From Escherichia phage Envy, in sequence record NC_031081.1: a stretch of DNA of 45,206 nt. One strand, given 5' to 3'. Both the position numbers and the translations under genes were made by a program. The notes beneath the pieces are model-generated. The model saw only the letters and a program-made list of their open reading frames with translations. It searched no databases and had not been told where the DNA came from. Each line of letters begins with the position of its first letter. The first letter of the stretch is position 1. Shown here piece after piece: positions 1,232 through 31,462 of the stretch.

Positions 1232-3519
1232 AAGACTTCGAACGCCTGTTTCTCGATACCGAGACATTTAGCGGGGTGGACCTGAAGAAAGTAGGTGCGT
1301 ACGCCTACGCGGAGCACCCAACCACCGAGATTATGATCTGCACCTACGCCATAGACGAGGGCCGCGTGCAGACATGGGATTGCACCGAGTCCCCTAAAAT
1401 GCCGCGTGAACTTCGCAAGGCGCTCCGCCGGGTATCCCGCAAGAAAGCAAAAATCGTCATGGCTAACGGCCTCCTGTTTGACCGCCTGGTTATCCGTGAG
1501 AAGTGGGGTATTGACCTACCAGTTAGCCAGATCGAAGACACCATGATTATGGCCTTCCGTCACGCATTACCCGGCAGCCTTGATATGCAATGCCAGGTAC
1601 TGGGCGTAGATGCTGAACATGCGAAGGATAAAGCAGGCAAGGCGCTGATTAAGCGATTCTGTAAGCCAACGCCGAAGACTTACAAGGTCCGCCGCTATAC
1701 CCGCGAGACTCACCCGGAAGAGTGGGCCAAATTCCTCAAGTATGCGAAATACGACATCATCGCAATGCGTGAAGTGTACTGGCGTATCCCGGATTGGGGT
1801 AATACTCCGAAGGAAGACCAGATACTGGCAATTGACCAGTTGATCAATGACCGCGGATTCTACGTGGATACCAAACTGGCCTACGCCGCTATTAAAGCCG
1901 TGGAAGCGCACAAAGAAGAACTGAAAGAAGAGGCTATGGAGAAGTTTGGCGGTAAGCTAACCGGCAACGACTTCCTGCCATTGCTGCGCGATATTGCTCC
2001 GGCTTTCACTATCCATAATGCGCAGAAATCCACGCTGCACGACCTTCTTGCGGATCCTGACTTCCCGGATGAGGGCAAAGTGCTGATTGAAATGCGCCTC
2101 GGTGCGTCATCAACGGCATCGACCAAATACAATCCGCTCGTTAATGGCCTATCCGCCGATGGTCGCCGCCGTGGGTGTCTTCAGTATGGTGGTGCAAAGC
2201 GCACGCTGCGCTGGGCAGGTAAAGGTTTCCAACCTCAAAACCTGGCACGCGGAGAGTATAGCGACGATCACGAAGGGAAGATTAAGCGCCGCGAAGGTGA
2301 GAGCGACGTCGCTTTTTGGGTCCGGTCGCACATGCTCACCAACGGCATCAACTCCCTGTTACGCGGTACCGCGCACTGGGCGTATGACATATCTAAGCTG
2401 ACCGCCTCGACCGTCCGCGGGTGCATCATTCCGGCGAAGGGCAAGAAGTTTGTCGTCGCGGACTACTCCAACGTTGAAGGGCGTGGCCTTGCCTGGATCG
2501 CTGGCGAGAAAACCGCGCTAATGGTGTTTAAGGCCGGACGCGATATCTATTGCGAGACTGCCGGTAAGATGTTCGGCCTTGACCCGGATTACATCAAAGC
2601 CAACCGCAAAGACTTGCGCCAGATCGGAAAGGCGTGTGAATTGGGACTGGGCTATGGTGGCGGCGTTGCGGCGTTCTTGCAGTTCGCTAAAAACCTGGGC
2701 CTCGACCTTTACACTATGGCGGACGTGATGAAAGGCACGTTCCCGGATCACATTTGGGCGGCGGCGAAACGCGGCTATGAGTACGCCCGCATTAACGAAG
2801 CGAAGCGCCCGCCGAAGCCTGGTAAGAAAGACGAGCGCCCAACTTACATACTGCCGAAAAACGTATGGCTGACGTGCGACGCGATCAAACGTATGTGGCG
2901 TGAGGCTCACCCGAAGACGGTAGCCTTTTGGGCCGAGCTTGAGGACGCGGTGTTGTGTGCAATCCGCAATCCGGGCAAAGCATACTGGGCTGGCGCGAAC
3001 GTTCGCCCGGACGGAAGGAAAGCGCTCAAGATTGTGCGCACGAAGGCGAAGCACGACCCAACCTTCGACGAGGAGCGCGACGACCCGGACGCCGCGGGGT
3101 GGTGGTTGAAAATTGAGTTGCCGTCGGGGCGCATCATGAGCTACCCGGGCATCGCGCTGTCTGTCACGACCGAGATCGACGAAGATACTGGCAAGAAACG
3201 CACCAGCACCCGCATTAAATACCAGGGCGAGAACCAGACGACGCGCCAGTGGGGATTCCAGTACACCTACGGCGGCAAACTGACGGAGAACATCGTACAG
3301 GCGTTGTGCCGCGATATTCTCGCATGGTCCATGCCTGGCGTTGAAGCTGCGGGCTATGAAATCGTCCTGTCAGTACACGACGAATTGATCACCGAAGTGC
3401 CAGACACTGACGACTACACGACCGAGGAGCTTTGCGCGCTGATGTGCGACCTGCCAATTTGGGCGAAAGGCTTCCCACTTGCCGCAGAGGGCGATTGCAT
3501 GTATCGCTACCGCAAGTAG
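1228..3519 (+). CDS. family A DNA polymerase with N-terminal DnaQ-like 3'-5' exonuclease
   Basis: 763 aa; FLDTETFSG exo motif; RQIGKACELGLGYGGG (motif B-like) and LSVHDELITEV (motif C-like). Confidence 0.9.
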   Translation: MKDFERLFLDTETFSGVDLKKVGAYAYAEHPTTEIMICTYAIDEGRVQTWDCTESPKMPRELRKALRRVSRKKAKIVMANGLLFDRLVIREKWGIDLPVSQIEDTMIMAFRHALPGSLDMQCQVLGVDAEHAKDKAGKALIKRFCKPTPKTYKVRRYTRETHPEEWAKFLKYAKYDIIAMREVYWRIPDWGNTPKEDQILAIDQLINDRGFYVDTKLAYAAIKAVEAHKEELKEEAMEKFGGKLTGNDFLPLLRDIAPAFTIHNAQKSTLHDLLADPDFPDEGKVLIEMRLGASSTASTKYNPLVNGLSADGRRRGCLQYGGAKRTLRWAGKGFQPQNLARGEYSDDHEGKIKRREGESDVAFWVRSHMLTNGINSLLRGTAHWAYDISKLTASTVRGCIIPAKGKKFVVADYSNVEGRGLAWIAGEKTALMVFKAGRDIYCETAGKMFGLDPDYIKANRKDLRQIGKACELGLGYGGGVAAFLQFAKNLGLDLYTMADVMKGTFPDHIWAAAKRGYEYARINEAKRPPKPGKKDERPTYILPKNVWLTCDAIKRMWREAHPKTVAFWAELEDAVLCAIRNPGKAYWAGANVRPDGRKALKIVRTKAKHDPTFDEERDDPDAAGWWLKIELPSGRIMSYPGIALSVTTEIDEDTGKKRTSTRIKYQGENQTTRQWGFQYTYGGKLTENIVQALCRDILAWSMPGVEAAGYEIVLSVHDELITEVPDTDDYTTEELCALMCDLPIWAKGFPLAAEGDCMYRYRK

Positions 3520-7385: not shown

Positions 7386-7414
7386 TTGCAGTACGGGATT
7401 GGTTGCATTATATT
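7386..7414 (+). promoter_or_regulatory. sigma70-like promoter (TTGCAG-17-TATATT) with two ATTGGTTGCA direct repeats
   Basis: hexamers and spacing upstream of 7461 CDS. Confidence 0.45.
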
Positions 7415-7460: not shown

Positions 7461-7703
7461 ATGAAACGAGTATTTTTTGATTACGACGGTGATTTACGGT
7501 TATGGGTGTGCATTGTGCTGTTCTTATTCTTTTGCCTCCTGCTGCCGATTTCCTGCACGTATAACCTCGATAAATATGAATGCCGTATTGTCTACGCAGA
7601 ACTAACAGGTCGTAACACCCAGTGGCGCTATGGCACTTGCTGGGTTGAAATGGACGGCAAATTTATACCACGCAAAGAAATTCGCATGACGGATATTAAA
7701 TAA
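7461..7703 (+). CDS. small membrane protein (about 80 aa)
   Basis: GAGGA RBS 7 nt before ATG; hydrophobic stretch LWVCIVLFLFFCLLLPI. Confidence 0.5.
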   Translation: MKRVFFDYDGDLRLWVCIVLFLFFCLLLPISCTYNLDKYECRIVYAELTGRNTQWRYGTCWVEMDGKFIPRKEIRMTDIK

Positions 7704-8161
7704 TGAAAATTTTACAAGAAGAGAAAGCGTATTGGGTAGCACAGTGTCTTGAAGCCCGCGAGAAAGCGGAAGGAGCTACCGCGCTGGCGGACACCTACCT
7801 GGCGAGCTATGAAGGCGAGGAGAAGGTCCGAAAGGAATTAGAGGAACGCTTCGAACTGCTGGGCGAACTGATCACCATTATGCAGCGCACCGGGTACACA
7901 ACATCCGTATCGCTCACCCGGCTAACCGCCGATGCCCTGCGCGAGCATTACAAACTGGCCGAGGAGTACGTCCGTCCGAAGGGCAGCCAGTCTTCGATCC
8001 CGCGGAAAGGACTGGTGCATATAGCGTGGCGTGCAAACGGCAGCTACTATTCCGATAGCCGACCGCTCAGTAAGGAGGAGATGTCCAGAGTCCAACGCGT
8101 GCTATCCAGCGGAAAGAAAACCGCCCTGTATGCGATAGATCCAGACTATGCAGAAGAGTGA
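7703..8161 (+). CDS. hypothetical protein (152 aa)
   Basis: ORF coupled to neighbours (TAAATAATG). Confidence 0.55.
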   Translation: MKILQEEKAYWVAQCLEAREKAEGATALADTYLASYEGEEKVRKELEERFELLGELITIMQRTGYTTSVSLTRLTADALREHYKLAEEYVRPKGSQSSIPRKGLVHIAWRANGSYYSDSRPLSKEEMSRVQRVLSSGKKTALYAIDPDYAEE

Positions 8162-8838: not shown

Positions 8839-9350
8839 AATTACTGATTTGCGATTTGGATGGCGTTATTAACGGTTCAAGCGATGCGCGTGCCGACCTG
8901 GTTCCGGGCATAAAAACAAAATCCACCTTTTGGGCGAAGTGGCACAAAGCGCATATACGCGAAGATCTGAACATGGATATGCTGCCGCTGCTGACCATGT
9001 ACAAAGAGCAAGGCTTCGAGATCGCGTATCTGACCAACCGGCAGCGAGAATGCTGGGAGACTACCGTCGAGCAATTGGAAGTATTCCCCGTAGGCCGGTT
9101 GTTTATGCGCCACATGCTGGACGATACCCCGCCGCCAGAGTTTAAAGCGTGCGCCGTGTTCAAAATGGTCTGCTATGCGGACGTATCGGAACTGGTCATC
9201 ATTGAAGACTGCCCGAAGAACATCGCGGCCATTCGACGGGCGTGCAGCGATCTGGTCTCGAAAATTTATGCGATAAACGTTGCAAAATTTACTTGCAACC
9301 AACCTATTGGTTGCACTATAGTTAACTCGTCGGGGCGATATGGCCCCTAA
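8835..9350 (+). CDS. HAD-superfamily hydrolase-like protein
   Basis: N-terminal LICDLDGVI (HAD motif I DxDG); 3' end overlaps the next promoter. Confidence 0.55.
   Translation: MKLLICDLDGVINGSSDARADLVPGIKTKSTFWAKWHKAHIREDLNMDMLPLLTMYKEQGFEIAYLTNRQRECWETTVEQLEVFPVGRLFMRHMLDDTPPPEFKACAVFKMVCYADVSELVIIEDCPKNIAAIRRACSDLVSKIYAINVAKFTCNQPIGCTIVNSSGRYGP
9293..9322 (+). promoter_or_regulatory. sigma70-like promoter (TTGCAA-18-TATAGT) overlapping inverted repeat TGCAACCAA-ccta-TTGGTTGCA
   Basis: hexamers plus perfect 9-bp inverted repeat. Confidence 0.45.
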
Positions 9351-9363
9351 AAAGGACCACATA

Positions 9364-9918
9364 ATGAAAGCATACGAATACTGCAAAAACGCCGCCACCA
9401 CTATGGAACAGCGCGGAAAAGAAAACGGCTATGACAACGCGAAAGAAGAGCGTAGCGCTAAACAGATCGCTGACGTGTTTAACGCGCTTACCGGTCGCGA
9501 CCTGACCGAGCAAGAAGCCTGGACCTTCTTGATCTGCCTGAAGCTGGTACGCCAGCACCGTAAGCACCAGGACGATAACATCGTTGACCTGGTAGCATAT
9601 GCCGCACTGCTGGGCGAGTCGTACATGACCGTGCATGACGAGATCCAGATCGACACAACGGCAGCACAATTCGACAGCCTCAAAGACCTGTCCGTACGAC
9701 TAGATGGCGAGATTAATGCGTATAACAGTGCGATGCGCGTTGCCGAAGGTGTGGTGGCCTCGTTCGGGAAGACTGTCAAAGCCGCCAATTTCGGCGTAGC
9801 GGCCCAGGACGTCCAGCCTATGGTCGTGCTCACTGGAGAGGATGGGTCCAAAATCCTCATGACGCCGGAAGACTTCCGCAACATGGAAAAAACACTGGTA
9901 CGTAGCGCACTGAAATAA
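9364..9918 (+). CDS. hypothetical protein (184 aa)
   Basis: AAGGA RBS 8 nt before ATG 9364; WTFLICLKLVR...DNIVDLVAYAALLGE motif recalled from small phage helical domains, unverified. Confidence 0.55.
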   Translation: MKAYEYCKNAATTMEQRGKENGYDNAKEERSAKQIADVFNALTGRDLTEQEAWTFLICLKLVRQHRKHQDDNIVDLVAYAALLGESYMTVHDEIQIDTTAAQFDSLKDLSVRLDGEINAYNSAMRVAEGVVASFGKTVKAANFGVAAQDVQPMVVLTGEDGSKILMTPEDFRNMEKTLVRSALK

Positions 9919-10566: not shown

Positions 10567-12981
10567 TTTCTTCAACGCCGCGATCTCGGCCTTCAAATCC
10601 TCCACCTGCTTATTGAGATATTGAACACACCCCATCAAGTCCATTACGATCGGGTTAACGTCGATGGATGGGCGGTCCGTCATCTTCTCCCCGATCTTGT
10701 TGCCGTCTTCGTCGAGAATATCCTCGATCGGGAACTCGTGGTGCTTAACGTACTGCGGCGCAATTAACTCCGCTTCTTCGGCGATAATACCGAAGCGCTG
10801 GCGGGCCTGCTCATCATCCTTATACACGAAGTTAACAAGGCGCTGGCTGTTAATGCGGTCCATAGCTTCGCTTGCGTCCGCATCGGCAATATCTTTCTTA
10901 TACTCGCGCCCTGATGTGCCTTGCAGCGCGATAGTCCCCGATGCGGTAGTCGGGAAGTTAAGCATAATTTCGCCGGTACGGTTCCCATCCTTACGTCGCA
11001 TAAACAGGCGAAAATGTCGAGTGCCGCTCTTGTCTAGTGCCGGTTCGAAGAACGTCCTACCGCCTACGACGTCGTTCGGCACGGTTTCGCCTACGGTGTA
11101 GTACGGTTCGAATGCAAATTGCAGGTAAGACCCGCGGCTTACTGCCAGGCTACCAACGACATCTGACCCTGAACTGTTCACCGTAAACTTGCCCGGCAAG
11201 GTCATCTCGCCTTTGGTGTTAAAGTCGATGCCTGAACTCTGCGCCGTCTCCAGGTTAGTGATCGCCAGGCGGGCGTAAGTCTCACCGTCGATATTCGCAC
11301 GGACGCGCAGCTTTGCTTCCGAGTGTAAAGAAGTGCCAACACGATATTCAGACACAATGCTTCCGCCGTCTGCCGTAGTGCCCGCTGGCGGTTTAGTGGC
11401 GTCGCCGTTGATTACCGACCACGACGTATTAGCGGCGGCGAATCCGCCTGACGCTCGAATAACCCACACGCCCATGAAGTTATTGGGGCGCAACTCCGAT
11501 ACGGTCCGGCCATAGATCGCGTTGACCTTCGAGGCGTCCATGTTAATGATGCCGTAGGAGACTGCGCCGTTACCAACAGGTAGGTTGCCTGGCGACCGAT
11601 ATTGCGAAGCCGCTCCACCAGCCCCGTGGAACGCGCCACTTTCATGGTTGATAATACTTGCGGCCCCGCCGCCGTGTAATTCGACGCGGCCTGTGATGTT
11701 AGGTGCTCCTGATTCGTAGATATACCCATCGTTGCCACTTTGCCCGCCGTCGCCCCTGCCGAACAAGCCGAATATGGACCCAGGCTGAACGCCATTACGG
11801 TCCGGCACTCGGAAGGTAGTTGTGCCGTCACCCGTAGAATACTTTCCGCGCTGATTTGGGTTTGCCAGCCAGGTCTCGTCACTAATTGGCGACAGCATTT
11901 GCGCATACGCCCAAAGCTCAGGCCAATCAGCTCGGTTTAACAATTGACCGTCGGACACCACTTCGTAAGGTTGAATATACGCGCGGCTGTCCCGTAAATG
12001 GAAATCACCTACGCCATAGTTCATGACGCCGTTCATTGTAGGGCCGACAGTGCCGGTGTTGATCAGATTCTGCACCCAGCGCTTTGTCGTGGCGTCGTAG
12101 TCACCAACAGGGTCGCCAGCCAGTGGTGTTGCCCCGTCCGGGCGAACGTTAAGCCAGGCTTGCGGTTTGTCGGTGAGTCCCGCCAGGTTGCCTGATTTTG
12201 TTAGCAAGTTATCCGCGTTAACGCTTTGCGCCCACTCCTCGGCCTGATCGCGGAATCCCTGCGCGGCTGTGCTGGCAGCTTGCGCGTCCGTCTTCGCGGT
12301 GTTGGCCTCGTCCCTCATAACGCCGGTGTCAGTCTTGATCTGGTTCGTCTGGTCTTTGATGGCCTGCGTATCAGTCTTAATCTGGTCCGTCTGCGTCTTG
12401 ATGGTATTGGTGGCGTCGTGGATAGCCTGCGTATCCGCCTTAATCTGGTCAGTCTGCGTCTTGATTGTATTGGTATCGTTTTTGAAGCCTTCGGCCTCAT
12501 CCCGAAATCCTTGCGCTGCGGATTTCGATGCTTCGGCTTGCGCTGCGAGGTCGCGCATCTCAACGGGGTCTACGTTCTTAAGCAATTCCGACAGGTATCC
12601 CCATGACATTCCCTGCATGACTTGCCCGTTAGGTAGCGTCACGGTGATTTCTTCAGCGTCGCCGAAGATTGCACGCCAGTTGTTTTCATCTGCGATCATC
12701 AATCGCAACGCTTTCTGTGCCTGTACGGTAACGCCCATCGTTGCCAGCGACATGGTATCGCGCTTAACACCATCCCAAGCAAGGCCGGTTGCCGTTGGGC
12801 CGTCGAACGGCAACACTAGCGTAAGCGCCGTGTTACTTTCGATTGATGCGATCGCCACTGTGTAAGGCACTTGTCCTACCACCAGCGTTAAGAAGTCGCC
12901 AGCTTTAAACGCGGTAAACGTTGTGCCGACTCCTACTACCGCCGTGCTATTGTTCGTTACGGATAGCGTACCCGCTGCCAT
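10564..12981 (-). CDS. tail fiber protein with C-terminal intramolecular chaperone (peptidase S74-like)
   Basis: about 805 aa from ATG at 12981 (GAGGA RBS); repeat-rich coiled coil, Gly-rich domain, C-terminal region typical of self-cleaving chaperone domains. Confidence 0.75.
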   Translation of the reverse strand: MAAGTLSVTNNSTAVVGVGTTFTAFKAGDFLTLVVGQVPYTVAIASIESNTALTLVLPFDGPTATGLAWDGVKRDTMSLATMGVTVQAQKALRLMIADENNWRAIFGDAEEITVTLPNGQVMQGMSWGYLSELLKNVDPVEMRDLAAQAEASKSAAQGFRDEAEGFKNDTNTIKTQTDQIKADTQAIHDATNTIKTQTDQIKTDTQAIKDQTNQIKTDTGVMRDEANTAKTDAQAASTAAQGFRDQAEEWAQSVNADNLLTKSGNLAGLTDKPQAWLNVRPDGATPLAGDPVGDYDATTKRWVQNLINTGTVGPTMNGVMNYGVGDFHLRDSRAYIQPYEVVSDGQLLNRADWPELWAYAQMLSPISDETWLANPNQRGKYSTGDGTTTFRVPDRNGVQPGSIFGLFGRGDGGQSGNDGYIYESGAPNITGRVELHGGGAASIINHESGAFHGAGGAASQYRSPGNLPVGNGAVSYGIINMDASKVNAIYGRTVSELRPNNFMGVWVIRASGGFAAANTSWSVINGDATKPPAGTTADGGSIVSEYRVGTSLHSEAKLRVRANIDGETYARLAITNLETAQSSGIDFNTKGEMTLPGKFTVNSSGSDVVGSLAVSRGSYLQFAFEPYYTVGETVPNDVVGGRTFFEPALDKSGTRHFRLFMRRKDGNRTGEIMLNFPTTASGTIALQGTSGREYKKDIADADASEAMDRINSQRLVNFVYKDDEQARQRFGIIAEEAELIAPQYVKHHEFPIEDILDEDGNKIGEKMTDRPSIDVNPIVMDLMGCVQYLNKQVEDLKAEIAALKK
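12290..12500. repeat. about 33-bp periodic direct repeats inside tail fiber gene (encode TQTDQIKTDTQAIKD-type heptad repeats)
   Basis: repeated GTCTTGATCTGGT/CGTCTGCGTCTTGAT units. Confidence 0.55.
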
Positions 12982-13061: not shown

Positions 13062-13280
13062 ATGAAAACCTTAATTATGATTTGTGCGGTTCTTTTGTCC
13101 GGTTGTGCCAACATGCCCGCTAAAGTCTGCGACGCCACATACCAGAATAGCGGCATGGATTATGCGGTACCTGTGTATGGTGTTGCGGACTTCTCCGGGC
13201 ATAAAATGCTAAGGGCGGGTTATCCGTTTAGCTTCCAGTACGTGTCTGTAGACCATTTCAAAAGCACAACCTGCAAATAA
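13062..13280 (+). CDS. small lipoprotein (72 aa), candidate superinfection-exclusion protein
   Basis: MKTLIMICAVLLSGC lipobox; AGGAGA RBS; own promoter and terminator; opposite strand between tail fiber and tail tip genes. Confidence 0.6.
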   Translation: MKTLIMICAVLLSGCANMPAKVCDATYQNSGMDYAVPVYGVADFSGHKMLRAGYPFSFQYVSVDHFKSTTCK

Positions 13281-27093: not shown

Positions 27094-28194
27094 TTAAGAC
27101 GCGGTAGTCGCCGTCAGCGTAACCAGTACGCCAGCGGTTTCCTTGATGTGTCGGGTAGGCACTGCCTGTGCGGCCTGGGTCTTACGACGACCTTTAGTAT
27201 CGCCATCACCCACAGCGCCAACGTCCTGCACGGTTGCCGGTGCGTTGTCTACCTGGCCCTGGTCCAGTTCCCAGTTAGCGGAAGTGGTAATATCGTCCAG
27301 TTTGAACGAGCGCACACCTTCGATCGGGGTACGAGCGGACGCCTTCAGACGGTAGCCTTTAACGGCCACGTTGAAGTCGAACTCGCCCTGCCACCAGCGT
27401 TCGATGTTCTCGTTACCGCCTTTCTCCTGCGCCAGCATATCGAGGCCGTTGGTGGTAACTGCAACCGCGCCAGGAACCAGACCCAGCATGTTACCAGCGC
27501 CCATAGCATCGGCAGCGGCATCGGAGATAATGAATCGACGGCCCAGGCCATCACCCATTACCTGTAGATCGCCAATTGCGAATACCTGTTCAGCAGAAGG
27601 GAGTGCCTGGTACGCAATGAAGTTTGCCCAGGTAACGCCGTCCATAAACCAGGACTTAATCAAAGACGCCTGATCGCCGAACTTAGAAGCCGCCAGCGGG
27701 AAGTCTGCCAGGGTCGGGAAGGTACGACCGCCAACGCCGTCAACGCGCGCCGGTTGGGTGTATTTTGCCGCTGCGTTGCTTTCGATCGCCGCTTTACTTG
27801 CGCCGATACCAGCTTTCAGGTAGTGCAGCATAATCGCTTGAGTAGCCTGTGCCGCAATCTCAGCCGCAACGCTGTTAACGTTGGTTTCGATCTTAGCCAT
27901 CATAGCCTTAGTGATTGCTACCGGACCCACTTTTGCGGAAAGGTTAACCGAGTTGGTCAGCATACGCGCCAGAACTTTCGCGGTTGCCGGAGTGCCGACA
28001 GGGGCGTAGGCGTTACGGTCGGTAACGAGGTTGGCGATCAAGCCTACGGACATTTTCTCAATAACATCCTTCAGCACTTCACCAGTACCGAGAACAACAG
28101 CGCCATTGGCGGCGGCGTTGAAAACGTTCAGGTTGTCGGGGATCATTTGCGTAACCGCGGTAACGAGTTTACGCTGGAACACTTTTAAAGACAT
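27094..28194 (-). CDS. major capsid protein
   Basis: 366 aa; follows scaffold gene; AAAGGA RBS; strong terminator downstream. Confidence 0.75.
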   Translation of the reverse strand: MSLKVFQRKLVTAVTQMIPDNLNVFNAAANGAVVLGTGEVLKDVIEKMSVGLIANLVTDRNAYAPVGTPATAKVLARMLTNSVNLSAKVGPVAITKAMMAKIETNVNSVAAEIAAQATQAIMLHYLKAGIGASKAAIESNAAAKYTQPARVDGVGGRTFPTLADFPLAASKFGDQASLIKSWFMDGVTWANFIAYQALPSAEQVFAIGDLQVMGDGLGRRFIISDAAADAMGAGNMLGLVPGAVAVTTNGLDMLAQEKGGNENIERWWQGEFDFNVAVKGYRLKASARTPIEGVRSFKLDDITTSANWELDQGQVDNAPATVQDVGAVGDGDTKGRRKTQAAQAVPTRHIKETAGVLVTLTATTAS

Positions 28195-28291: not shown

Positions 28292-28996
28292 TTACTCGTC
28301 GTCGCCCATCTTAGCGATGATTTCACCTGCCTGTTTCGTAAGGTCAGTGATACCGAAGCTGTGGCCCATAGTGATTTTCGACTTCACATCTTCGACAACC
28401 TGCGTCGGTTTGCTAGGCGCGCCACCGGCTGGCGTGCCAGCCAGGACGGATGCAAAATCGGCGTTATTACGGAACTCTTTTTCAAGCTCTTCCATAGTCA
28501 GCGCGGACGGTTTGCCATCCTGCAAGACACGCACTTTCAAGCTGCCGTCTTCGCCGTCTTCCAGCGTCAGGCGGTCCATTACGTGGCGTTGCATGATGCC
28601 CGCATTCTTACCGAATAGCTTCGATGCCAGGTCTTTGGCAGCGCTGCCGATGGTTAGATCGTGGATCTGCTTGCGGTAGGCTTCGATTTTTCCCGATGTG
28701 TCTGCTTCGTGTTTCGCAAACTTATCCTTCCAGGACTTGTCGATCGCTTCGAGGTCGCCATTTTTGCGCGCGGCGGCTTCCTCTTTCTCTTTCGCAAGGC
28801 GCTCAGCTTCGGCGCGGCGTTCAGCTTCTGCTTTCTTCTCGCTCACCAGCTTCGCGTTGTTGTCTTTCAGACCCTTGATTTCCGCCTGTACTTCTTCTGC
28901 GGTCATGAACGTTGACTTATACCCGTCACCATCGGCAACAAAAAGCGCCTTCATACCTTCCGGCAACGCGTCATATTCTGCTTTAGTAAGTTTCAT
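28292..28996 (-). CDS. capsid scaffolding protein
   Basis: about 234 aa from internal ATG with AGGGGGA RBS; coiled coil EKKAEAERRAEAERLAKEKEEAAARK. Confidence 0.6.
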   Translation of the reverse strand: MKLTKAEYDALPEGMKALFVADGDGYKSTFMTAEEVQAEIKGLKDNNAKLVSEKKAEAERRAEAERLAKEKEEAAARKNGDLEAIDKSWKDKFAKHEADTSGKIEAYRKQIHDLTIGSAAKDLASKLFGKNAGIMQRHVMDRLTLEDGEDGSLKVRVLQDGKPSALTMEELEKEFRNNADFASVLAGTPAGGAPSKPTQVVEDVKSKITMGHSFGITDLTKQAGEIIAKMGDDE

Positions 28997-29086
28997 GCTA
29001 TCCCCCTGGGATTGTGGCAGAGCAGGCCACCCGCTCGACTTCACGCTTCTAATATTATCAGCGATAAAAATAATCGCAAAATTCGC

Positions 29087-29116
29087 TTGCAATCCTCGTA
29101 TTGGTTGCACTATATT
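29087..29116 (+). promoter_or_regulatory. sigma70-like promoter (TTGCAA-18-TATATT) followed by operator-like palindrome TTGGT-tgcac-ACCAA (29116-29130)
   Basis: -10 plus leader shares about 23 identical nt with promoter at 39245..39273. Confidence 0.5.
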
Positions 29117-29145
29117 GGTTGCACACCAACAACGAGGACACACAA

Positions 29146-29910
29146 ATGAGACTGACGAAAGACATTAAAAACCAGATTCTGGCTAACATCCTGCGCGACC
29201 ACGAAATCGCGACCGAAGCCAAATCAATCATGATGGACTCTCGAAATCTGGCGTACGCCATTACGCTGGACTGTATGCCGGAAGGCATTCGCACTTTCGC
29301 CGAGCTACTCTCGCGCATTAAAGCAATCGGCGATGACCCGTCGCAGATGTACGGAGTAAGCGTATACACCAACAAGGCGACGTATAGACATGACGACGAC
29401 AACCCATATGGTATAGGCAGCGTTTACGACGCCACTTTCGAAATCAACGCAGGCGGAAACGTCCGTACCGTGTCATTGAGCGGAGACGGATACCGATTCC
29501 GAGTACATCGAGGATACTGGGAGTATAAATACATGAATAAACTATCCCCCGATCTCGGCGATATTGTGCCAGGGTATGAGGAAATTTTGTTAGCGTCAGT
29601 GTGCGAAGTCGACGACGACGGGAAAGCGCTGCCGATATATAAGCCACGCGGTCGTATAGACTACCCGGCGGGTCATGATTTCTGCAAGCGCCTGGACCGT
29701 AACGACAAGGCCCGCCGTGAGTTGCGTGCTAAGTATGACGCGTTCAAACTAACTGTTACCGGCGTGCTGGATATGCACAATACAGATAAGAAGCTGATCA
29801 AGGCGTGGCCTGAAGTTGAACAGTTCATTCCTTACCCGGACAAGCCGAAGTCCACGGCGGTGGCGCTGGACGTGAAAACACTAAACGAGATTTGCGGTAT
29901 TCCGCGCTAA
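29146..29910 (+). CDS. hypothetical protein (254 aa); opposite-strand insertion in the head gene module
   Basis: GAGGA RBS; own promoter and terminator. Confidence 0.6.
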   Translation: MRLTKDIKNQILANILRDHEIATEAKSIMMDSRNLAYAITLDCMPEGIRTFAELLSRIKAIGDDPSQMYGVSVYTNKATYRHDDDNPYGIGSVYDATFEINAGGNVRTVSLSGDGYRFRVHRGYWEYKYMNKLSPDLGDIVPGYEEILLASVCEVDDDGKALPIYKPRGRIDYPAGHDFCKRLDRNDKARRELRAKYDAFKLTVTGVLDMHNTDKKLIKAWPEVEQFIPYPDKPKSTAVALDVKTLNEICGIPR

Positions 29911-29913
29911 CGA

Positions 29914-29945
29914 AAAGGGGGCCATCACGGCCCCCGAATTATTTT
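29914..29945. terminator. bidirectional rho-independent terminator
   Basis: GGGGGCC-atcac-GGCCCCC then GAATTATTTT. Confidence 0.65.
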
Positions 29946-30155
29946 CTGCAACTCCAGCACTTGCGCCCGCAGCTTCGCACCACACTCCATATTCTTAACA
30001 TCAACCAGCAAGTCTTCGTCTGGATCTGCCGAGGCATTCTCAAAGGTGCAAGGCGGTCTATAGACCGACTCGGTTAGCGGCATCAATGGCGCTTTGCTTG
30101 ATCCGCACGCGCTCAGCATCAAAACTGCAATCAGGACGGTTAGGACGCGTAACAT
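29925..30155 (-). CDS. outer-membrane spanin (Rz1-like lipoprotein)
   Basis: MLRVLTVLIAVLMLSAC lipobox, Pro-rich mature part; overlaps i-spanin 3' end in another frame. Confidence 0.55.
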   Translation of the reverse strand: MLRVLTVLIAVLMLSACGSSKAPLMPLTESVYRPPCTFENASADPDEDLLVDVKNMECGAKLRAQVLELQKIIRGP

Positions 30156-30396
30156 ATTTCACAACCTCTTTCGTGATAGTCCGGTATTCCACATCGCGGG
30201 CTTGCTCAGCCTTCACTGCCCCCTCGACAACCTTAGTTTGCTGCCGTTGGGCTTTCGCTTGCGCTTCTTGCGCCGCTCTCGCCTCAACGCCAGTGCGGTA
30301 GGAATAACCCTGCCAGAATCCAACCGCCAGACCTATAACCAGTCCGATCGCCGCGTATTTAATCACGCCATAGCCCCCTGTTTTTAAGCTGCGCAA
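30058..30396 (-). CDS. inner-membrane spanin (Rz-like)
   Basis: N-terminal TM segment then coiled-coil periplasmic domain; overlapped by o-spanin. Confidence 0.55.
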   Translation of the reverse strand: MRSLKTGGYGVIKYAAIGLVIGLAVGFWQGYSYRTGVEARAAQEAQAKAQRQQTKVVEGAVKAEQARDVEYRTITKEVVKYVTRPNRPDCSFDAERVRIKQSAIDAANRVGL

Positions 30397-31462
30397 TAGT
30401 CATTAGTTCGCCCGTATCGGTGAACATCTTCGGCACTTTCACGCCTCGCATAATCTGGTCGGCGCGTTGCACCCCGTATAATTCTTCCAGGATATGGCGC
30501 GGCTGGCGCTGCACCCAGGAGAAGAAATCAGTCTGCGCGTCGACCTGCTCACTCAGCAATCGGCCCGCGTCAGCCTTCAGTGCCGGACGCTTACCACTGG
30601 GCCAATCTTCCATGCCCTTAACTTTCCACGTCTCCGTCGAACGGCAGCAATAATGCAGCTTGCCCGGTCCAGCGCCATATTGTGATCCCGCCACCACTTT
30701 CCCGCCGCGTTTTCCTTTGGTGTCGGGAGTGACGTCAACAGGATAAAACAGGCGATCGCGTAGCTGGCACATAGGGGAAGTATGAGTGTCCAATGTGGAC
30801 AACCATTGGCGACCTTCGAGAATATCGTCATTAGCTTTCACCATTAATTCGCGGGCGGTCGCCGCATAGTGGTTGACTGCGGACTTAACAACGCTTGAGA
30901 TTGCTTGCGCACTACGACCGCCGAGCGCGCGCCTCACGTCCGCGATAATTTCCATAGTCGGCTTGCCCTGGATGAATCCGGCGCGCACCTGATTGCCGAT
31001 CTGCGTCCTTGTCCACTCTGAAAGTGAATCCGGCCATTGCATCATGGTGTTACCCTGGAACGGGTTTTTCATCGCAGTCGCTGCGATCTGCGCGCCTGTT
31101 ACTACACCCACCACCTCGACCGCAGGTACGGCGACCACCGGCTGGATCGCTGCCGTTAATGTGTCGGCGAGATAATCGGCCTCGGTGTCGGCAAACTCCT
31201 GAAGGCTTTCAGCCAGCGCCTTAAACTCGGTGCGCAGTTCTGTTTTAACGGTCTTGTCGAGTTGCGTTAACAGAGTGGTAAGTGCCTTGTTGTTCATGGA
31301 CTTTTCGCCATCAAGTAACTCGGTCAGCTTACCCAGTAACGTGGGCCGGAACTTCGCCCACATAGCCAGCACCCGCCGCGCCTGGTCATTGCTCAGGCGC
31401 TGGGTGAAGATGTGACGACGGATCATGCGATCCGCCATATGTTGATTAATCGTTCTCGCCAT
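30359..31462 (-). CDS. head morphogenesis protein (Mu F / SPP1 gp7-like)
   Basis: QWLSTLDTHTSPMCQLRDRLFYP matches Mu-F signature; directly after portal gene. Confidence 0.7.
   Translation of the reverse strand: MARTINQHMADRMIRRHIFTQRLSNDQARRVLAMWAKFRPTLLGKLTELLDGEKSMNNKALTTLLTQLDKTVKTELRTEFKALAESLQEFADTEADYLADTLTAAIQPVVAVPAVEVVGVVTGAQIAATAMKNPFQGNTMMQWPDSLSEWTRTQIGNQVRAGFIQGKPTMEIIADVRRALGGRSAQAISSVVKSAVNHYAATARELMVKANDDILEGRQWLSTLDTHTSPMCQLRDRLFYPVDVTPDTKGKRGGKVVAGSQYGAGPGKLHYCCRSTETWKVKGMEDWPSGKRPALKADAGRLLSEQVDAQTDFFSWVQRQPRHILEELYGVQRADQIMRGVKVPKMFTDTGELMTIAQLKNRGLWRD

Follow-up and report, generated by a model that had tools for sequence, protein, structure and literature searches.

The closest described counterparts of the gene examined here are those of the Dhillonvirus phages SM_S22 (CDS6) and SM_A8 (CDS7), in which nmad5, the same gene at the same locus, was studied by Yamashita et al. 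(2025, Commun Biol 8:290; PMC11846954). Our subject is nmad5 of Escherichia phage Envy, at positions 29146-29910 of sequence record NC_031081.1; the whole 45,206-nucleotide (nt) stretch of that record is referred to as the window, and coordinates are those of the window unless another locus is named. In the published work, mutants of both sister phages that escape the membrane NTPase Tmn carried the same substitution, K216E in SM_A8 and K296E in SM_S22; reversion of K216E brought Tmn sensitivity back, and engineering K216E made the phage Tmn-resistant. An SM_S22 phage deleted for nmad5 was viable and still Tmn-sensitive, wild-type nmad5 gave no protection against Tmn, and the gene could not be cloned, apparently through toxicity; the authors name Nmad5 a DNA modification enzyme (PMC11846954).

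Envy shares with these two phages the genus, the locus, the strand arrangement and a 254-amino-acid (aa) protein, which is 94-96% identical to those of SM_S22 and SM_A8 and has the wild-type K216. SM_A8 differs by an extra 104-aa gene upstream at the same site, and the published genetics belong to the sister phages, whereas Envy is known here from its sequence. The two numbers given to the escape residue reflect an annotation: the SM_S22 GenBank coding sequence CDS0006 (1506-2510, plus strand, in our locus L002) is 80 codons too long and starts inside the scaffold gene, 5' of the promoter, so that the residue is counted as K296, its true position being K216.

A second point of comparison is the T2/T4 protein RIIB, which in T2 directly triggers Tmn, is described as an early, membrane-anchoring replisome factor, and has nonsense (loss-of-function) mutations that escape Tmn (Wu et al., 2026 preprint, PMC13001434). 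Like RIIB, Nmad5 is a non-essential and probably early phage protein in which mutation can lead to Tmn escape. The two proteins are unrelated in sequence and fold, and loss of function of RIIB escapes Tmn whereas deletion of nmad5 does not; binding of Nmad5 to Tmn is only hypothetical.

The gene itself is thus already known, from a curated protein family and from a near-identical orthologue with published genetics (PMC11846954). What we add is a modular slot with five cargoes, scarred losses of nmad5, a promoter architecture present in four copies, replication-module contexts of the family, and a confident structural model without a match to a solved fold.

Identity of the gene

The gene is read as follows.

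29146-29910, plus strand: nmad5 coding sequence, a full-length Nmad5 domain protein (open reading frame list, Pfam, PHROG and substitution ratios)

The open reading frame (ORF) has its ATG at 29146, 254 codons and a TAA stop codon at 29908-29910. Its product matches the Pfam family PF18757 (Nmad5, nucleotide modification associated domain 5) at 184.2 bits (E 4.2e-54; gathering threshold 27 bits), with residues 1-253 aligned to profile positions 1-206 of 206 and hence over the whole domain, and it matches PHROG 1965 (no known function) over positions 3-205 of 208. The residues found family-wide, each common to 83-100% of 141 diverse members, are all present in Envy (R2-L3, G104, T213, L217, W221-P222-E223, P229, L246-N247, G251 and P253). 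Pairwise ratios of nonsynonymous to synonymous substitution (dN/dS) against seven relatives are 0.11-0.16, which indicates purifying selection where the gene is retained and which, together with the Pfam score of 184 bits, makes the ORF certainly coding. No nucleotide-modification genes surround Envy nmad5, whose neighbours are spanins and scaffold; since such a context is not part of the Pfam definition, membership in the family stands. That the gene is nmad5 is, in our judgement, virtually beyond doubt. The earlier note on this DNA, made from the letters alone, had not recognised the protein, which we can now place in PF18757 and PHROG 1965; several GenBank relatives already carry the Nmad5 annotation.

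At this locus the gene is widely shared. Homologues with 87-100% aa identity occur in about 148 Dhillonvirus records, and the region 28900-30200, which matches 153 phage records, nearly all of them Escherichia Dhillonvirus, is 100% identical in Escherichia phages Sloth, Gluttony, Lust and Pride.

Beyond the genus, an exhaustive profile search gave 929 representatives at 50% identity. Nearly all of the best 150 of these stand alone, at about 190-250 aa, and none of the 150 has the length that a fusion with an enzyme domain would need. Homologues were found in phages of Escherichia, Salmonella, Klebsiella, Vibrio, Pseudomonas, Bordetella and Acinetobacter, and all of the homologue matches listed are labelled hypothetical or uninformatively. 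Compared with most members, the Dhillonvirus proteins are longer by about 50 residues, located around 81-90 and 121-160. A word-indexed homologue search that started from distant phage homologues yielded next to nothing new; the depth comes from the exhaustive representative search. A search for Nmad1-4 returned nothing relevant. Judging from the Pfam title and the gene contexts, the family name derives from gene neighbourhood.

Most records of Stx2a-converting phages match the lambdoid Nmad5 homologue at two separate sites (for example 11131-11652 of LC616069.1 and a second place), residues 34-207 being the listed match and residues 1-37 lying apart in LC616031.1, which suggests an insertion or disruption; in Stx1a phages and in mEp235 the homologue is intact.

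Two other readings of the ORF list were set aside: a longer, TTG-initiated ORF (from 29101, 269 aa), whose start lies 5' of the -10 hexamer and is not preceded by a ribosome-binding site, and minus-strand ORFs within nmad5 (29058-29402, 29444-29647 and 29673-29828), which are unsupported. An Rfam search of 28900-30200 found no RNA family.

A modular accessory slot with repeated loss of nmad5

We compared the site across 21 loci (L-numbers denote the loci and contigs compared: L002 is SM_S22, L005 is HK578, and L026 and L032 are eiAU). What emerged is a slot of 629-1521 bp in the relatives that is filled with one or two of five interchangeable cargo genes, always antiparallel to the structural genes.

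28997-29924: accessory slot, from scaffold start to o-spanin stop; in Envy the cargo is nmad5 only
Cargo A: nmad5
Cargo B: 172 aa, PHROG 3007, weak sliding-clamp-like Pfam and PHROG matches
Cargo C: 104 aa, no known function
Cargo D: about 135-140 aa, no known function
Cargo E: about 54 aa, no known function
Cargo other than nmad5: L006 2508-3026 (minus), L005 2579-3001 (minus), L003 1752-2066 (plus), and the L010 slot
A only: Envy and Sloth, SM_S22, slur05, L021
B only: TheodorHerzl, L009, L012
D only: HK578
C and A: SM_A8, L016, L018, L019
B and A: EP23
D and A: L013, L020
C and B: L017
E and A: L010

Wherever nmad5 is present it is the last cassette, adjoining the terminator. Most two-gene slots have a GGGGCGAAAGCCCC hairpin between the cassettes, and ahead of nmad5, 3' of this hairpin, the leader AACAACGAGGACACA.AAATG found 3' of the Envy promoter is repeated. 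No empty slot occurred among the relatives sampled.

The slots of HK578, TheodorHerzl, L009, L012 and L017 lack nmad5, and several of them retain traces of it. In HK578 (L005, about 2520-2580), ATGAGACTGACGAAA, nmad5 codons 1-5, is joined straight to the terminator. A CTGACGAAA repeat stands at both ends of nmad5 in EP23, and the HK578 scar runs via a direct repeat of the CTGACGAAA type. In L017 only the last 12 nt or so of nmad5 are left, and in B-only phages (L006, L009 and L012) a third junction joins the stop codon of cargo B to the ...TAAC of the nmad5 3' end. Three distinct scars imply that nmad5 was lost independently at least three times. In a wider phage collection, 157 records have a capsid at least 80% identical to that of Envy and 148 have an Nmad5 of at least 60% identity, from which we take the gene to be common yet dispensable in nature, as it is in the laboratory. 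We conclude with high confidence that nmad5 is a dispensable accessory gene.

This bears directly on whether nmad5 might be a gene for virion structure or assembly. Its surroundings, in themselves, would invite that reading, and all are on the minus strand, opposite to nmad5:

27094-28194, minus strand: major capsid protein
28292-28996, minus strand: scaffold
29925-30155, minus strand: o-spanin
30058-30396, minus strand: i-spanin
30359-31462, minus strand: head morphogenesis, with portal and large terminase beyond

The 254-aa ORF, running against the structural operon between the spanin pair and the scaffold gene, is placed exactly as the earlier note described it. Position alone, between head-morphogenesis and spanin genes on one side and scaffold and capsid genes on the other, speaks for a structural role, which we nevertheless judge extremely improbable and effectively refuted. 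The gene runs opposite to its neighbours, under a promoter of its own and up to its own terminator; in the sister genus its head-gene neighbours adjoin and Nmad5 is encoded elsewhere in the genome (phage eiAU, below); the deletion mutant is viable (PMC11846954); and in all other phages examined the homologue lies in early regions. The earlier note had also proposed checking related phages, where conservation at this locus in all of them together with a structural role would have told against an accessory gene, and the check came out the other way: nmad5 is missing from HK578, TheodorHerzl and others with a 97-99% identical capsid.

Promoter, leader and terminator

The regulatory features of the slot, and sites resembling them elsewhere in the genome, are the following.

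29087-29116, plus strand: sigma-70-like slot promoter (-35 TTGCAA 29087-29092, 18-nt spacer, -10 TATATT 29111-29116), predicted from a scan and from conservation
29099-29110 and 29113-29124, plus strand: TATTGGTTGCAC, present twice in direct orientation and overlapping with the spacer, the -10 hexamer and the probable start region
29125-29145, plus strand: 5' leader with ribosome-binding site GAGGA at 29134-29138, read from the letters
29917-29935, both strands: bidirectional intrinsic-terminator hairpin GGGGGCC-ATCAC-GGCCCCC, from a scan on both strands
29052-29079, minus strand: candidate divergent promoter for scaffold and capsid (-35 TTGCGA 29079-29074, 16-nt spacer, extended -10 TGaTAATAT 29060-29052)
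7386-7414 (plus), 9293-9322 (plus), 29087-29116 (plus) and 39273-39245 (minus): full promoter-like sites, each immediately 5' of a same-strand ORF
4438, 12997 and 38704 (plus), 39639 and 42543 (minus): looser motif sites

A generic promoter scan found four promoters against 3.0 expected, which is not above chance alone. The predicted nmad5 promoter becomes credible because of two further observations. The block from about 29000 to CACACCAAC (29129) is near-invariant in 16 Dhillonvirus loci, irrespective of the cargo gene that follows, and the architecture TTGCAN-N17/18-TATAKT with an embedded ATTGGTTGCA motif occurs at four sites in the genome against 0.55 expected. The TATTGGTTGCAC motif, with up to two mismatches, has 12 sites in the window against 3.5 expected, a number reached in 0 of 100 shuffles. 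As an alternative role, the ATTGGTTGCA motif could be the operator of some phage regulator. In the leader, which forms the common left boundary of the slot cassettes, GAGGA lies 7 nt 5' of the nmad5 ATG.

At the other end of the gene, the hairpin has a stem of 7 bp, all GC, with folding energies of about -17 kcal/mol for the plus-strand RNA and about -20 for the minus-strand RNA (z about -2.5). It has a T-rich flank on either side, is kept in all relatives compared, and its equivalent in the HK578 record is marked as a rho-independent terminator on both strands. By its sequence, this terminator is predicted to be common to the convergent nmad5 and spanin operon, which would mean that transcription of scaffold and capsid has to restart. 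The divergent promoter at 29079-29052 could provide this restart; it has 8 of 12 matches, under the threshold of the scan, and lies in a block (29050-29092) that is near-invariant in 16 relatives. The promoter and the strong terminator that the earlier note saw bracketing the gene have accordingly held up, the former as a prediction.

Three side observations concern sites of this kind. An inverted repeat, GCGAT-N7-ATCGC at 29062-29078, lies in the invariant divergent-promoter region between scaffold and nmad5 and may be an operator. Directly 3' of the nmad5-type promoter at 9293-9322 is the ORF 9340-9918 (plus strand, 192 aa, DUF6378, E 1e-9), with a GC hairpin GGGGCGATATGGCCCC in its leader. 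Within the tail module, an opposite-strand ORF (13062-13280, plus strand) encodes a homologue of the superinfection-exclusion protein Cor (PHROG 1119, E 3e-27), with a ATTGGTTGCA motif about 65 nt 5' of it.

The ORF 7703-8161 (plus strand) also stands beneath a promoter of the nmad5 type. Its product is 74% identical to SM_S22 CDS0035 (PHROG 10530, 'DNA ligase'), and the Gluttony annotation remarks that evidence for the 'DNA ligase' label is lacking. To judge by the gene numbers, CDS0035 may correspond to the published anti-Tmn 'ORF35'.

Origin of the arrangement

In eiAU of the sister genus Eiauvirus (L026 and L032; capsid 60% identical), 86 bp separate the head-morphogenesis gene from the scaffold gene and the spanin sits with the holins; in Envy the spanin pair (29925-30396, minus strand) lies between head morphogenesis and scaffold, distant from the holin and endolysin genes. 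The comparison suggests that the Dhillonvirus head module gained spanins, terminator and accessory slot as one block. In eiAU, Nmad5 is gp32 (Pfam E 2e-68), encoded in an operon downstream of the helicase-primase gene, and the counterpart operon of Envy begins at the 39273 (minus) promoter. A stretch of about 30 nt there, TATATTGGTTGCACACCAACAA(C)GAGGAC, spans the -10 hexamer, start region, leader and ribosome-binding site, and the nmad5 promoter matches it except for a single-base indel. The match leads us to infer that, when nmad5 entered the head module, a copy of that promoter came with it.

Morons of lambdoid phages, as Hendrix and colleagues reportedly described them, are extra genes with their own promoter and terminator between conserved neighbours. 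The Envy gene resembles them in being an opposite-strand promoter-gene-terminator unit at a site where a related genus has adjoining head genes, with the caveat that the block inserted relative to eiAU also includes the spanins, and in being a variable and dispensable cassette. The layout of a moron or accessory gene that the earlier note had proposed is borne out by the conserved promoter and terminator, the variable cargo, at least three scarred losses, the other position in Eiauvirus and the viable SM_S22 deletion (PMC11846954). Unlike a moron, the Dhillonvirus slot holds multiple cargoes, and the base composition of nmad5 is native and not foreign: its GC content is 51.5% against 54.5% for the genome, and its GC content at third codon positions is 0.61, the same as in scaffold and capsid. 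Since the near-identical Gluttony has no annotated integrase or repressor, Dhillonvirus appears to be virulent, which would mean, unlike for morons, neither expression from a prophage nor a benefit to a lysogen.

Gene contexts of the family

Across the phages inspected, the shared context of Nmad5 genes is an early replication or recombination module, and modification genes accompany only a subset. The lambdoid phage mEp235 encodes Nmad5 in its pL operon, with N on one side and kil/erf/ssb/exo on the other; Vibrio phage Athena1 has the gene directly 5' of that for replication protein O, and phage Pondi has it amid small early genes. Two phage contigs of about 40 kb have it as the first gene of an operon with a PD-(D/E)xK exonuclease, an Enc34 single-stranded-DNA-binding protein and DNA polymerase A, and in one further contig it adjoins an exonuclease and polymerase A. 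A thymidine-hypermodification cluster adjoining DNA polymerase A contains the gene in Yuavirus (SN1 and M6) and in contig L031.

These last contexts speak for the view that Nmad5 either modifies DNA bases itself or is an obligate cofactor for an enzyme that does, and that Tmn senses the modified DNA. In Yuavirus SN1 and M6 and in L031 the gene stands between those for 5-hydroxymethyldeoxyuridine (5-hmdU) kinase and pyrophosphorylase and that for a thymidylate-synthase-like hydroxymethylase; a modification enzyme is also how Nmad5 is interpreted in PMC11846954, and two DNA methyltransferases are encoded elsewhere in the Envy genome, going by the annotation of Gluttony. The Yuavirus proteins (Pseudomonas M6, Sphaerotilus SN1) are homologous to that of Envy and share about 37% identity with it in the C-terminal 80 residues; their Pfam matches are full-length. 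Their genes differ in being flanked by 5-hmdU kinase, aGPT pyrophosphorylases, a radical S-adenosylmethionine enzyme, a pyridoxal-phosphate enzyme and a hydroxymethylase, none of which Envy has. A tblastn search of the window with thymidine-hypermodification enzymes gave no homologue, all matches having E values above 0.2 over 13-54 residues, and most of the Nmad5 contexts examined contain no modification genes. The protein shows neither a known enzyme fold nor conserved residues of a catalytic type (next section). Dhillonvirus phages are described as comparatively sensitive to type I and type II restriction, unlike genera with deazaguanine-modified DNA (BASEL preprint). Finally, loss of a modification should be equivalent to deletion of the gene, yet the deletion phage stays Tmn-sensitive (PMC11846954). 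We consider an enzyme or cofactor of base modification quite improbable, and the label 'DNA modification enzyme' unsupported in the Envy genome.

Structure and conserved residues

An AlphaFold2 model of Nmad5, built with a 141-sequence alignment, has a predicted local distance difference test score (pLDDT) of 89.9 and a predicted template modelling score (pTM) of 0.83. In order, it contains three N-terminal helices, a small beta-sheet, an insertion at about 121-160, a long helix at 178-209, two short helices at 214-227 and a C-terminal helix at 243-250; the insertion, specific to Dhillonvirus, is its least confident part. The model matched no solved fold, sequence-profile searches of the Protein Data Bank (PDB) with 28- and 141-sequence profiles gave nothing significant, and Foldseek against viral models found only other uncharacterised Nmad5 proteins.

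Across the 141 sequences the near-invariant residues are R2, L3, N14, G104, G113, T213, L217, W221, P222, E223, P229, L246, N247, G251 and P253. Most are G, P, L or W, the polar ones being only R2, N14, T213, E223 and N247. Neither a conserved residue set of a catalytic type nor a recognisable enzyme fold is to be seen. The model marks residues 2 and 213 as isolated bridge residues, and the N-terminus may accordingly make up a single patch with the T213-E223 motif. With a grand average of hydropathy (GRAVY) of -0.49 the protein is soluble, and superinfection exclusion, one of the functions guessed at in the earlier note, is unlikely for such a protein.

The escape residue of the sister phages lies in this conserved region.

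29791-29793, plus strand: codon K216 (AAG), where K-to-E gives Tmn escape in sister phages

K216 is inside the motif T213-x3-L217-x3-W221-P222-E223, and position 216 is K in 56%, Q in 21% and R in 12% of the 141 sequences (89% together) and never D or E. With the motif conserved and the column never acidic, K216E reverses a charge at the most conserved site of the family.

Nmad5 could be the Tmn trigger, with no other important role, and K216E would then abolish recognition. Independent escape mutants of two phages fall on the same residue and reversion restores sensitivity (PMC11846954), and in T2 a single phage protein directly triggers Tmn (PMC13001434). Against this, the deletion phage is still Tmn-sensitive, so that Nmad5 is not the sole trigger (PMC11846954), and both the dN/dS of 0.11-0.16 and the family-wide conservation show a selected function of its own. 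A role as trigger alone is, in our view, very unlikely. A further candidate, that nmad5 is Ksap1, the Dhillonvirus trigger of KpAvs2, was rejected, as Ksap1 is small and confined to Dhillonvirus.

Proposed function

Tentatively, we favour the reading that Nmad5 is a replication-associated binding factor, early and non-catalytic. The replication-module contexts, the lack of a PDB relative in the searches above, the few polar invariants and the stand-alone size favour such a factor, and so do the Tmn findings, with escape through K216E but not through deletion (PMC11846954) and with RIIB as the direct trigger in T2 (PMC13001434). The gene would be transcribed apart from the late structural genes, through a near-copy of the promoter heading the operon that follows helicase-primase. 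Its product may then serve as a non-catalytic binding or adaptor factor in phage DNA replication or recombination, with an interaction surface possibly formed by the N-terminus (R2, L3) and T213-K216-L217-W221-P222-E223, and a second interaction site perhaps provided by the conserved C-terminal peptide L246-N247-x3-G251-x-P253. Where phages hypermodify thymidine, this factor might serve the modification step that accompanies replication. The interaction surface may also influence how infection is sensed by Tmn: that K216E escapes Tmn and deletion does not is most simply read as a trapping or masking of the real trigger by the mutant protein, which might do so by still engaging its partner.

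Several points weigh against this reading. Gene neighbourhood is association only, and phage early regions hold many unrelated accessory genes; a protein of new fold could yet be catalytic despite few conserved polar residues; trapping or masking is one among several fits to a gain-of-function allele; and the designation as a DNA modification enzyme by the authors of PMC11846954 points elsewhere.

Anti-defence and host takeover were two further guesses of the earlier note. Host takeover would fit the apparent toxicity of the gene in cloning attempts. The one experimental tie to defence is the Tmn escape of the K216E allele (PMC11846954). As for anti-defence, Nmad5 might be a protein dedicated to countering a system other than the tested Tmn allele, with K216E retargeting or broadening it to Tmn. 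The variable accessory slot and the gene's own promoter would suit this, as would the same promoter family driving cor and the operon with the homologue of SM_S22 CDS0035, perhaps an anti-Tmn gene. The gene is non-essential and apparently toxic, its escape allele acts as a gain of function (PMC11846954), and repeated natural loss fits a trade-off of cost and benefit. On the other hand, wild-type Nmad5 gives no Tmn protection (PMC11846954), and the breadth of the family (929 clusters at 50% identity) and its near-invariant motifs point more to a conserved core target than to an immune protein that evolves fast. K216 being conserved, K216E more likely harms a native interface than tunes Nmad5. 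PADLOC gave no match, a weak point since its library holds defence and not counter-defence proteins. On balance, we think a dedicated anti-defence role unlikely.

The replication-factor reading can also be put in a bolder form, which we regard as doubtful. Nmad5 would be a replisome-associated protein of new fold that docks its partner via the N-terminus, K216 and the WPE residues, forming a complex that Tmn surveys (as a counterpart of RIIB) and in which K216E traps the trigger. On this view, recombination would drive the exchange of accessory factors of DNA metabolism (Nmad5, the clamp-like protein and others) at the slot, which would not be a classical moron.

Significance

Because the modification label is unsupported in Envy, identifying the partner of Nmad5 is worth doing, rather than pursuing nucleoside chemistry alone. 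K216 decides Tmn escape in the sister phages and, together with the anti-Tmn gene, bears on the prediction of host range and on the engineering of therapeutic Dhillonvirus phages. The slot is a clean natural example of cassette exchange, with defined boundaries and scars, and it could be a tolerated insertion site for phage engineering. Finally, the Nmad5 family comprises 929 clusters at 50% identity and has no solved structure, and finding its function would annotate many phage genomes.

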